A stretch of 64,000 nt of DNA from Acidimicrobiia bacterium (GTDB lineage: Bacteria; Actinomycetota; Acidimicrobiia; Spongiisociales; UBA11373). Below, piece after piece: positions 64 to 1,087 of this stretch. The DNA lies in assembly GCA_040878325.1 (NCBI GenBank), contig JBBDMM010000012.1, positions 1 through 64,000 on the forward strand, written 5' to 3'. The first letter of the stretch is position 1, and every line of letters begins with the position of its first letter. Made by a program: the position numbers and the translations under genes. The notes beneath the pieces were generated by a model that was given only the letters and a program-made list of their open reading frames with translations, was not told the DNA's origin and ran no database searches.

Positions 64-784
64 AGATCACACTGCGTCCCCTGAGAGCAATCTCAGGGTG
101 TTTATCGGCTCATATCGGGGAAATCCTGTCACTGGCACGAACTACGGTGTCAGGACAATCCCGAGGGAAGTTCAGAGCCATGGAGTCATTCCTTCCATAC
201 CTTGCAGGATTCTTCGACGGAGACGGAAGCTTATGCTTTCAGATCGTTCGTCAACGCGAGTACCGGTTCGGGTTCTACATCCGAGCCTCCTTCTCGCTCC
301 ATCAGGCCACCACGGCCGAGGATGGGCTCGCGCTCATCCGGAGGGAGCTGGGAGGACCGGGCTACATGCGCCGCCGGCAAGGCGGTATGTCAGACCTGGT
401 CATCACGCAACGACCAACGATCTCCGAGATCCTTGACCAGGTCCGACCGTACGTCGTGTTCAAGCGACGTCAGGTCGAAGCTGGTCTGGCTCTTCTCGAG
501 AGGCTGCCGCCTCCTCGAGACCCCGTCGGATTCCTGGAGCTATGTGAATCGGTTGATGACTTCGCATCCCTAAACGCTTCGAAGTCGAGAACGGTCACGT
601 CCGTGATCGTCCGAGACGAATTCGAGCGCACGGGTGCTCTGAACCCCGTAACGACTGATCCTTGATGGAGAGACGGAGTACTCACCGGTGGTCATCCACC
701 AAATATATGAGTTCCGTAATACGCCGACCCCCCGAAAGGGGGTGGAGGGATAGTCTGCACCCTCAGTAATGAGGGATCAATGTG
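64..784 (+). mobile_element. Group I intron (IA3-like) at 23S position L2593
   Basis: Splits the conserved AGAACGT|CGTGAGACAG. P1 has U63.G74 wobble; P2 79-98 has GCAA loop; P3 105-109/723-727; P4 115-119/160-164; P7 653-657/751-755; P8 GAAA loop; P9 GTAA loop; terminal G784; extra helices between P7 and P3'. Confidence 0.95.
180..665 (+). CDS. Intron-encoded single-motif LAGLIDADG homing endonuclease, I-CreI/I-MsoI-like
   Basis: YLAGFFDGDGS motif; C-terminal FLELCESVDDFASLNASKSRTVTS resembles the I-CreI C-terminus; 161 aa from ATG180. Confidence 0.95.
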   Translation: MESFLPYLAGFFDGDGSLCFQIVRQREYRFGFYIRASFSLHQATTAEDGLALIRRELGGPGYMRRRQGGMSDLVITQRPTISEILDQVRPYVVFKRRQVEAGLALLERLPPPRDPVGFLELCESVDDFASLNASKSRTVTSVIVRDEFERTGALNPVTTDP

Positions 785-1087
785 CGTGAGACAGTTCGGT
801 CCCTATCCGTCGCAGGCGCAGGAGGTTTGAGGGGAGCTATCCCTAGTACGAGAGGACCGGGATGGACGTACCTCTGGTGTGCCAGTTGTCTTGCCAAGGG
901 CACGGCTGGTTAGCTACGTACGGCACGGATAAGCGCTGAAGGCATCTAAGTGCGAAGCCGGCCCCAAGATGAGACCTCCCACCGTTCGCGGTTAAGACCC
1001 CTGACAGAACATCAGGTTGATAGGCCGGAGGTGTAAGCGCAGCAATGCGTTCAGCCGACCGGTACTAATCGGTCGAGGGCTTGAGTC
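785..1087 (+). rRNA. rrl: 23S rRNA, 3' exon
   Basis: CGTGAGACAGTTCGGTCCCTATC; sarcin-ricin loop AGTACGAGAGGACC; GCTGAAGGCATCTAAG; 3' end approximate. Confidence 0.96.

Follow-up and report, generated by a model that had tools for sequence, protein, structure and literature searches.

A group I intron of 721 nt, holding an open reading frame (ORF) of the I-CreI type in its P6 loop, interrupts the 23S rRNA gene of an Acidimicrobiia bacterium. It lies at the start of the window, by which we mean the whole 64,000-nt stretch of DNA that was analysed. We hold with high confidence the overall reading that this intron is likely self-splicing and likely homing, and that its circles likely close at exon base G786. 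It is genuine, and probably active and mobile. The intron itself is textbook: its site, fold and layout are those of the intron encoding I-CreI. The one surprising new point is a circle containing two exon bases, which comes from a single contig.

rRNA group I introns have been described as rare in bacteria outside the CPR. Passages of PMC1995217 describe introns at L2593 with single-motif LAGLIDADG genes in the cyanobacteria Synechococcus/Thermosynechococcus. An earlier note on this DNA had placed L2593 introns in green-algal organelles and, among bacteria, mainly in cyanobacteria. This range proved too narrow: passages of PMC11270868 document 23S site-2593 introns with LAGLIDADG genes in CPR bacteria, and passages of PMC6125680 document IA3 introns at LSU/2593 with LAGLIDADG genes in archaea. 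No report of group I introns in Acidimicrobiia or Actinomycetota was found in the literature searched, mainly open-access main texts and passages; actinobacteria are not named in PMC11270868 (main text, whose supplements contain 356 non-CPR LAGLIDADG proteins), nor in the main texts of PMC6125680 and PMC3984707, and the word "intron" is absent from bioRxiv 2022.07.19.500677. The host class seems undescribed for L2593 introns.

Position of the intron and its host gene

The insertion occupies positions 64–784 of the plus strand and is flanked by AGAACGT (57–63) and CGTGAGACAG (785–794). The earlier note had read it as a group I intron with exactly these boundaries in an actinobacterial 23S gene. 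This was confirmed by the Rfam model LSU_rRNA_bacteria, whose match to 1–1089 skips 727 letters where the model consensus has 6, and by intron-free relatives, in which both exons abut directly without an insertion. The 5′ exon piece (1–63) ends at U2593 and the 3′ exon (785–1089), delimited by the Rfam LSU match and the exons of relatives, starts at C2594; we take the insertion site to be number 2593 in E. coli numbering. A description of the site in a passage of PMC3315327 agrees with this position. The 5S rRNA gene, detected with Rfam, follows at 1146–1262, and these features are all on the plus strand. Rejoining 56–63 and 785–798 gives the 22-bp homing site, which reads as previously noted.

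Contig C12 begins with the window. The remaining part of the operon is located on contig C1 (L001, minus strand), which has a 16-nt overlap with the window start. No second LSU rRNA locus was found in the 18 contigs of the assembly, and in DNA run X1 the depth of the intron (47.8) equals that of the neighbouring single-copy DNA (47.6). It is therefore very likely that the host must splice the intron out of its 23S rRNA.

The same 23S gene contains two sister introns on the minus strand of L001: an ORF-less L1923 intron of 280 nt (RF00028, 55.2 bits; approximately L001:1381–1660) and a 758-nt L1951 intron with a LAGLIDADG ORF (approximately L001:593–1350). Three introns in one 23S gene are also present in Synechococcus sp. 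C9, as described in a passage of PMC1995217.

Secondary structure of the intron

The elements P1 to P10 were assigned by eye, and pairs were counted in a MAFFT alignment of the window intron with 50 of 67 homologous loci. These 67 loci, a lower bound, resulted from a narrow-pattern scan of 185,579 species genomes; the 17 left out of the alignment either proved impossible to parse or carry the gene at a different site. In the 51 introns, standard pairs occupy 3072 of the 3116 cells of the 62 core pairs, against 35–43% when the partners are slid by 1–3 positions, counts that are not probabilities because the sequences are related and the structure was derived from one of them. The U.G pair in P1, the full P2–P9 core and the terminal G that had been proposed from the window alone are thus borne out. 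Compensatory changes were observed in P2, P3, P4, P6a, P8, P9.0 and P9, in numbers that no column shuffle out of 500 attained. P1 and P6 are indistinguishable from column shuffles, and P7 is nearly invariant.

All elements are on the plus strand. P1 and its extension are located at 60–77; P1 is invariant (204/204 cells), the extension pairs in 102/102 cells with four compensatory changes, and the U63.G74 pair at the 5′ splice site is present in 51 of 51 introns. In the same region, positions 70–72 can alternatively form P10 with exon positions 786–788 (145/153 cells, hardly covarying). P2 (79–98) is a hairpin with a GCAA tetraloop (404/408 cells, 52 compensatory changes), and the 5′ strand of P3 (105–109) pairs with 723–727 (242/250, 16 compensatory), the P3 extension being weak (61/100). 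Positions 115–164 form P4 (115–120 with 159–164; 306/306) and P5/P5a (P5 225/248). The 5′ strand of P6/P6a (165–178) pairs with 636–647 and closes the ORF loop (P6 153/153; P6a 443/448, 35 compensatory). The catalytic core at 651–756 comprises P7 (651–656 with 752–756; 250/250), P7.1 (659–669; 144/150), P7.2 (673–717; 287/299), the 3′ strand of P3 (723–727) and P8 (728–744; 297/300), with G653–C755 as the guanosine site. The intron ends, at 757–784, with P9.0 (757–759 with 781–783; 150/150, 18 compensatory), P9 (760–775, with a GUAA loop; 296/297) and the terminal G784. A terminator-like match on P2 is at chance level and was dismissed.

An extension between P7 and P3 is therefore present in the form of P7.1 and P7.2, which we take to be the trait that defines IA introns. 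Passages of PMC6125680 list all archaeal 2593 introns as IA3, and the window intron is of IA type, probably subgroup IA3. With Rfam, at both gathering and E-value thresholds, positions 40–820 with this ORF-split intron matched no group I model, RF00028 included; five weak matches are due to chance. Likewise, a passage of PMC6125680 reports no significant RF00028 matches where subtype models succeeded. The archaeal and CPR introns described in passages of PMC6125680 and PMC11270868 share with the window intron the site, a LAGLIDADG gene in P6 and a split that defeats the generic Rfam model.

In the proposed splicing pathway, P1, with its U63.G74 pair, would mark the 5′ splice site, and a free G would attack it from the P7 pocket. 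P10 and P9.0 would then bring G784 into this pocket, after which the exons would be joined.

Probable circular intron RNA

The window stretch is contained in 21 runs, three of which are RNA (X9, X20 and X21). These three were compared with the best DNA run, X1, all as contigs. The metatranscriptome X9 contains one contig of 752 nt, with a depth of 36.5, that covers 411–786 and then 64–434. The joint from 786 to 64 has no ambiguous letters and 255 letters on its shorter side, and only positions 64–786 are covered. Presuming an assembler word length of 31, the circle is 722 nt long (752 minus 30), corresponding to the intron with one deletion (720 nt) plus two bases that match exon C785–G786. 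The X9 strain is about 96% identical to the window, and this contig, from a single RNA run, is the one piece of evidence for the +CG joint. The DNA run, X1, is linear over 26–868; X20 has a linear piece (620–788) that runs into the exon, and X21 has internal pieces alone among those listed.

The joint of 63 to 785 in the RNA runs was dismissed as evidence of splicing because the DNA run contains it too and any intron-free bacterium would match it. X9 lacks cover of the 23S–5S spacer and of 1277–1300, which fits with little DNA from the organism, although the gap proves nothing. Among the 15 joints listed, back-joints on related L1923-type introns were found in X9 and X20 but not in X1. The L1951 intron is represented in the RNA comparison by one piece of depth 2.

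In an exact full-length circle, the terminal G is joined to the first intron base. The X9 contig has two extra bases at this point, whereas L098, a metagenome stretch, has the exact joint. The circle-junction pattern was matched by 12 metagenome stretches; L098 is a real intron, the other 11 are chance matches, and viral contigs gave no match. L098 (1162 nt) consists of intron sequence only, with a period of 739–740 nt and 91–94% similarity to L037. Its two overlapping copies differ (85% identity over 281 nt), and it may be a tandem copy in DNA. Taking these contigs together, we infer that the L2593 intron forms circles as a side reaction.

Passages of PMC4167309, PMC6274462, PMC3679873 and PMC4344496 describe three types of intron circle, i.e., truncated, full-length and exoG-containing. 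The L098 junction corresponds to the exact full-length type, but the X9 junction, where C and G separate G784 from A64, agrees with none of these types, all of which are described there from nuclear introns. A passage of PMC13153191 proposes circles for a bacterial 23S intron, and no exon-containing intron circle was found in the titles and passages on circles that were covered.

Possible origin of the two extra bases

P9.0 can be drawn in an alternative, slipped register (757–786, plus strand), in which 757–760 would form four Watson-Crick pairs with 782–785. This GCAC pairing, two bases further on, would set exon G786 in the position of the terminal G. The slipped P9.0 was calculated at −10.3 kcal/mol versus −9.1 kcal/mol for the canonical one, a small gap of 1.2 (P9 alone, −9.9), and free folding of 636–790 picks the slipped register. 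Four Watson-Crick pairs in this register are possible in 5 of the 50 scorable introns and do not covary, which argues for a lineage accident rather than a conserved feature. The L098-type intron, which lacks the slipped register, shows the exact junction; L026 and L035 are further homologues without this register.

According to passages of PMC6155759, the 3′ splice site is set by P9.0 together with P10, and P10 is not formed at the same time as the P1 extension. Full-length circles are described in a passage of PMC3679873 as arising when the 3′ splice site is hydrolysed, with a subsequent attack on the 5′ splice site, and by this route the circle would be formed while the P1 extension is still in place. 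Until the first splicing step has occurred, this extension would block P10, leaving the choice of the 3′ site to P9.0 alone. With the slipped P9.0 as the more stable register, the circle in this lineage would likely close at G786 and not at G784. Use of G786 in splicing would cost the rRNA two bases near the peptidyl transferase centre, and hence P10 presumably enforces G784 when the intron is spliced. We put the probability that a slip to G786 accounts for the extra bases just short of an even chance.

It is rather unlikely that the +CG contig is instead an artefact of the library or the assembly, such as reverse-transcriptase template switching, from an intron that is itself real and spliced. 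Switching would be possible if the exon of the X9 strain read C-G-A-G-A as in G003, a genome of the same genus in which exon position 2596 is A and not T, because AGA would then be shared with the intron start. It also speaks for an artefact that the joint is seen in one assembled contig, and that the comparison with L1923 and L1951 yielded no junction letters. However, the X9 strain agrees with G001, whose exon reads CGTG, in 14 of the 18 ORF letters listed, and the X9 joints listed show the exon forms CGT and CGC and no CGA. Moreover, a switch at the CGT repeat (61–63 and 785–787) would add three nucleotides, not the two observed, and the contig closes on itself, entering neither exon.

If the +CG circle is true, a bacterial rRNA intron circularises in the environment, and the circle and splicing pathways can choose different 3′ sites in one intron. 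If the slip is also true, slip-capable introns would give +2 circles and the others exact circles. Tentatively, and with somewhat more doubt than about the slip itself, we propose that the Acidimicrobiia may be an unreported reservoir of homing introns with persisting circles, in which a slipped P9.0 would give a predictable fourth kind of junction with two added exon bases.

The encoded endonuclease

The ORF in the P6 loop (180–665, plus strand) is a single-motif LAGLIDADG homing endonuclease gene, whose product P0001 has 161 aa. It runs from ATG180 to a stop codon at 665, and its last ten codons pass through P6a, P6, P7 and P7.1. An in-frame GTG at 147 was dismissed as the principal start codon, since the ATG at the 180 position is present in most homologues. 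The nearest Shine-Dalgarno-like motif appears to be GAGG at 163–166, within P4/P6.

The protein matches PF00961 with 31.1 bits, above the cut-off, and I-CreI with an E-value of 2.6e-23; I-CvuI and I-MsoI were also matched. Its AlphaFold model (pLDDT 91.4) has TM scores of 0.82–0.86 to most I-CreI chains, at 35–38% identity. D15, Q42 and K95 align with D20, Q47 and K98 of I-CreI, its catalytic residues; D20N and Q47E mutants of I-CreI are named in PDB titles. In 78 aligned proteins, chosen from 120 listed matches, D15 is kept in 78, Q42 in 78 and K95 in 77, which upholds the earlier reading that the ORF retains the I-CreI active site. The DNA-facing residues R35, R64, R66 and D72 are invariant or nearly so in these homologues. 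The position of I-CreI R51, which we take to be an auxiliary and not a family-defining residue, is not basic; it is A46 here and A in 54 of the 78 homologues. Compared with I-CreI, the alignment shows five further changes at DNA-facing positions: K28 to V, N30 to Q, Q38 to Y, S40 to R and Q44 to S. The ORF is thus an intact I-CreI orthologue with some different DNA-facing residues; the new meganuclease scaffold that had been suspected is an I-CreI fold.

The chloroplast I-CreI, I-MsoI and I-CvuI systems and the Synechococcus/Thermosynechococcus L2593 introns have the same site, the single-motif I-CreI fold and the catalytic residues in common with the window intron. Sizes are also similar: 721 nt here versus 744–748 nt, and 161 aa versus 159–189 aa, as given in passages of PMC1995217. 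Unlike in those systems, the host is a free-living Acidimicrobiia lineage.

Probable mobility of the intron

The L2593 intron is likely mobile, judged from its intact ORF, a dN/dS well under 1 and its patchy distribution. Calculated with our own script (NG86), dN/dS is 0.10–0.32 in 12 of 13 chosen pairs, including 0.29 against G001; one pair is saturated. The endonuclease would act as a homodimer and cleave the nearly symmetric site of an intron-free gene, into which the intron would be copied during repair. Between G003 and the window, the 3′ core of the intron is 87.5% identical and the exon 99% identical.

ORFs are broken in 9 of 50 homologues, some of which may reflect sequencing errors, and that of L059 also looks frameshifted near its end. 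The unpublished genome G028 (L004/L023) has an L2593 intron of 392 nt, in which the core is intact and the endonuclease gene has lost its middle part.

It is conceivable, though improbable, that the ribozyme works while the endonuclease no longer homes, its ORF being kept for another job such as that of a maturase, or simply not yet decayed. The broken ORFs and the lost ORF middle of G028 would fit this, as would the non-basic residue at the R51 position and an intron tree that mirrors the host groupings among close relatives. In addition, a passage of PMC3984707 reports maturase-like activity for the LAGLIDADG protein of a Thermotoga 23S intron. Nevertheless, the catalytic residues and the DNA-facing residues named above are (nearly) invariant, and empty target sites are abundant in the family. 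The core is intact in copies with a broken or deleted ORF, which indicates that the protein is not required for splicing.

Distribution and sister introns

Of the 41 genomes of the family, 28 cover the insertion site. The site is empty, uninterrupted and near-identical in 25 of them, and three carry the intron (G000, G001 and G003). All three are in one genus of four, in which G002 is without the intron. A class sample of 201 genomes gave 138 matches, including G000; no further L2593 insert was present among the matches listed, of which that of G173 has a gap across this position. Compared with L2593, L2604 is the more frequent insertion site (10 of 137 in the class sample). Loci with an L2604 insert are L005/L022 (G003), L017–L019, L028, L050–L052, L060 and L135–L142, and several genomes carry both an L2604 and an L2593 intron, with an 11-nt exon left between them.

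Of the 67 loci, 48 non-CPR records have an L2593 insert, 46 of them labelled Acidimicrobiia or Actinomycetota/Actinomycetes, one Planctomycetales and one unclassified; L025, an Acidimicrobiia locus, is a 94%-identical match. The earlier note had considered rRNA group I introns rarely reported in actinobacteria. Its claim of rarity does not stand: 46 other Acidimicrobiia/actinomycete genomes possess an L2593 intron, although its occurrence is sporadic (3 of 28 covered family genomes). This sporadic occurrence differs from that of the archaeal and CPR 2593 introns, which are frequent in the passages describing them; the neighbouring sites 1923, 1931, 1951/1952 and 2604 are also occupied in both cases.

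In an unrooted tree of 29 introns with long branches, the introns largely follow host groupings, and long-range transfer is therefore not demonstrated; the Acidimicrobiia introns group apart from two CPR rows. A tree of 290 nt of exon is poorly resolved and has mis-extracted rows (L028 and L077), so that only its starred pairs were used. Among viral contigs, the 29 loci obtained are either distant or share the motif alone, so that none is a close carrier, and plasmids gave no match. L034, a Planctomycetales-labelled contig of 3.7 kb, has an intron of this group with 54% protein identity and an exon that is merely 73% like that of the window; it is possibly a cross-phylum transfer or a misbin.

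G001 carries all three introns (L1923, L1951 and L2593), with 96% identity over 5071 nt. A misassembly or misbinning, which would give the rRNA block a CPR, organellar or other origin, is already largely refuted and, in our judgement, extremely improbable: the block lies at a contig end and the GC content of the intron (57%) is below that of the genome (67%), but the depth in X1 stays even between the intron and the protein-coding DNA beyond, all three introns recur in G001, the 3′ exon is 95–100% identical to five exons of the same genus and family, and CPR homologues are merely 28–40% identical. Nor is the block chimeric, a concern of the earlier note, since X1, which may be the source sample, tiles 26–1300 at a depth of 45–51 within a 7.8-kb contig, and positions 1–1089 match an independent congeneric genome at 97% identity.

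A free-living soil/sediment class carries rRNA group I introns at five sites. Its intact, decayed and empty alleles, side by side, provide data for the cycle of gain, decay and loss, as well as a pool of natural I-CreI orthologues.

Some further features were observed. The relatives L009, L015, L018 and L019, of the same family or order, have inserts of 743 and 252 nt at L1923 and of 699 and 708 nt at L1931. L053 has a 609-nt L2593 insert without the P8–P9 part of the core and is either defective or misassembled. The central loop of the homing site is GAGA and not GTGA in L022 of G003 (U2596A), and L056 and L137–L140 have C at this position. A second partial match to the exon following site 2604 is present in G153 (G153:C1:1409516-1409554), about 1.7 kb from the intact site. 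Directly past the 5S gene, positions 1342–2346 of the window encode a TPR protein with a long, low-complexity N-terminus rich in Ser, Gly and Arg. Finally, the start of contig C2 and the end of contig C5 consist of a tandem 7-nt repeat.
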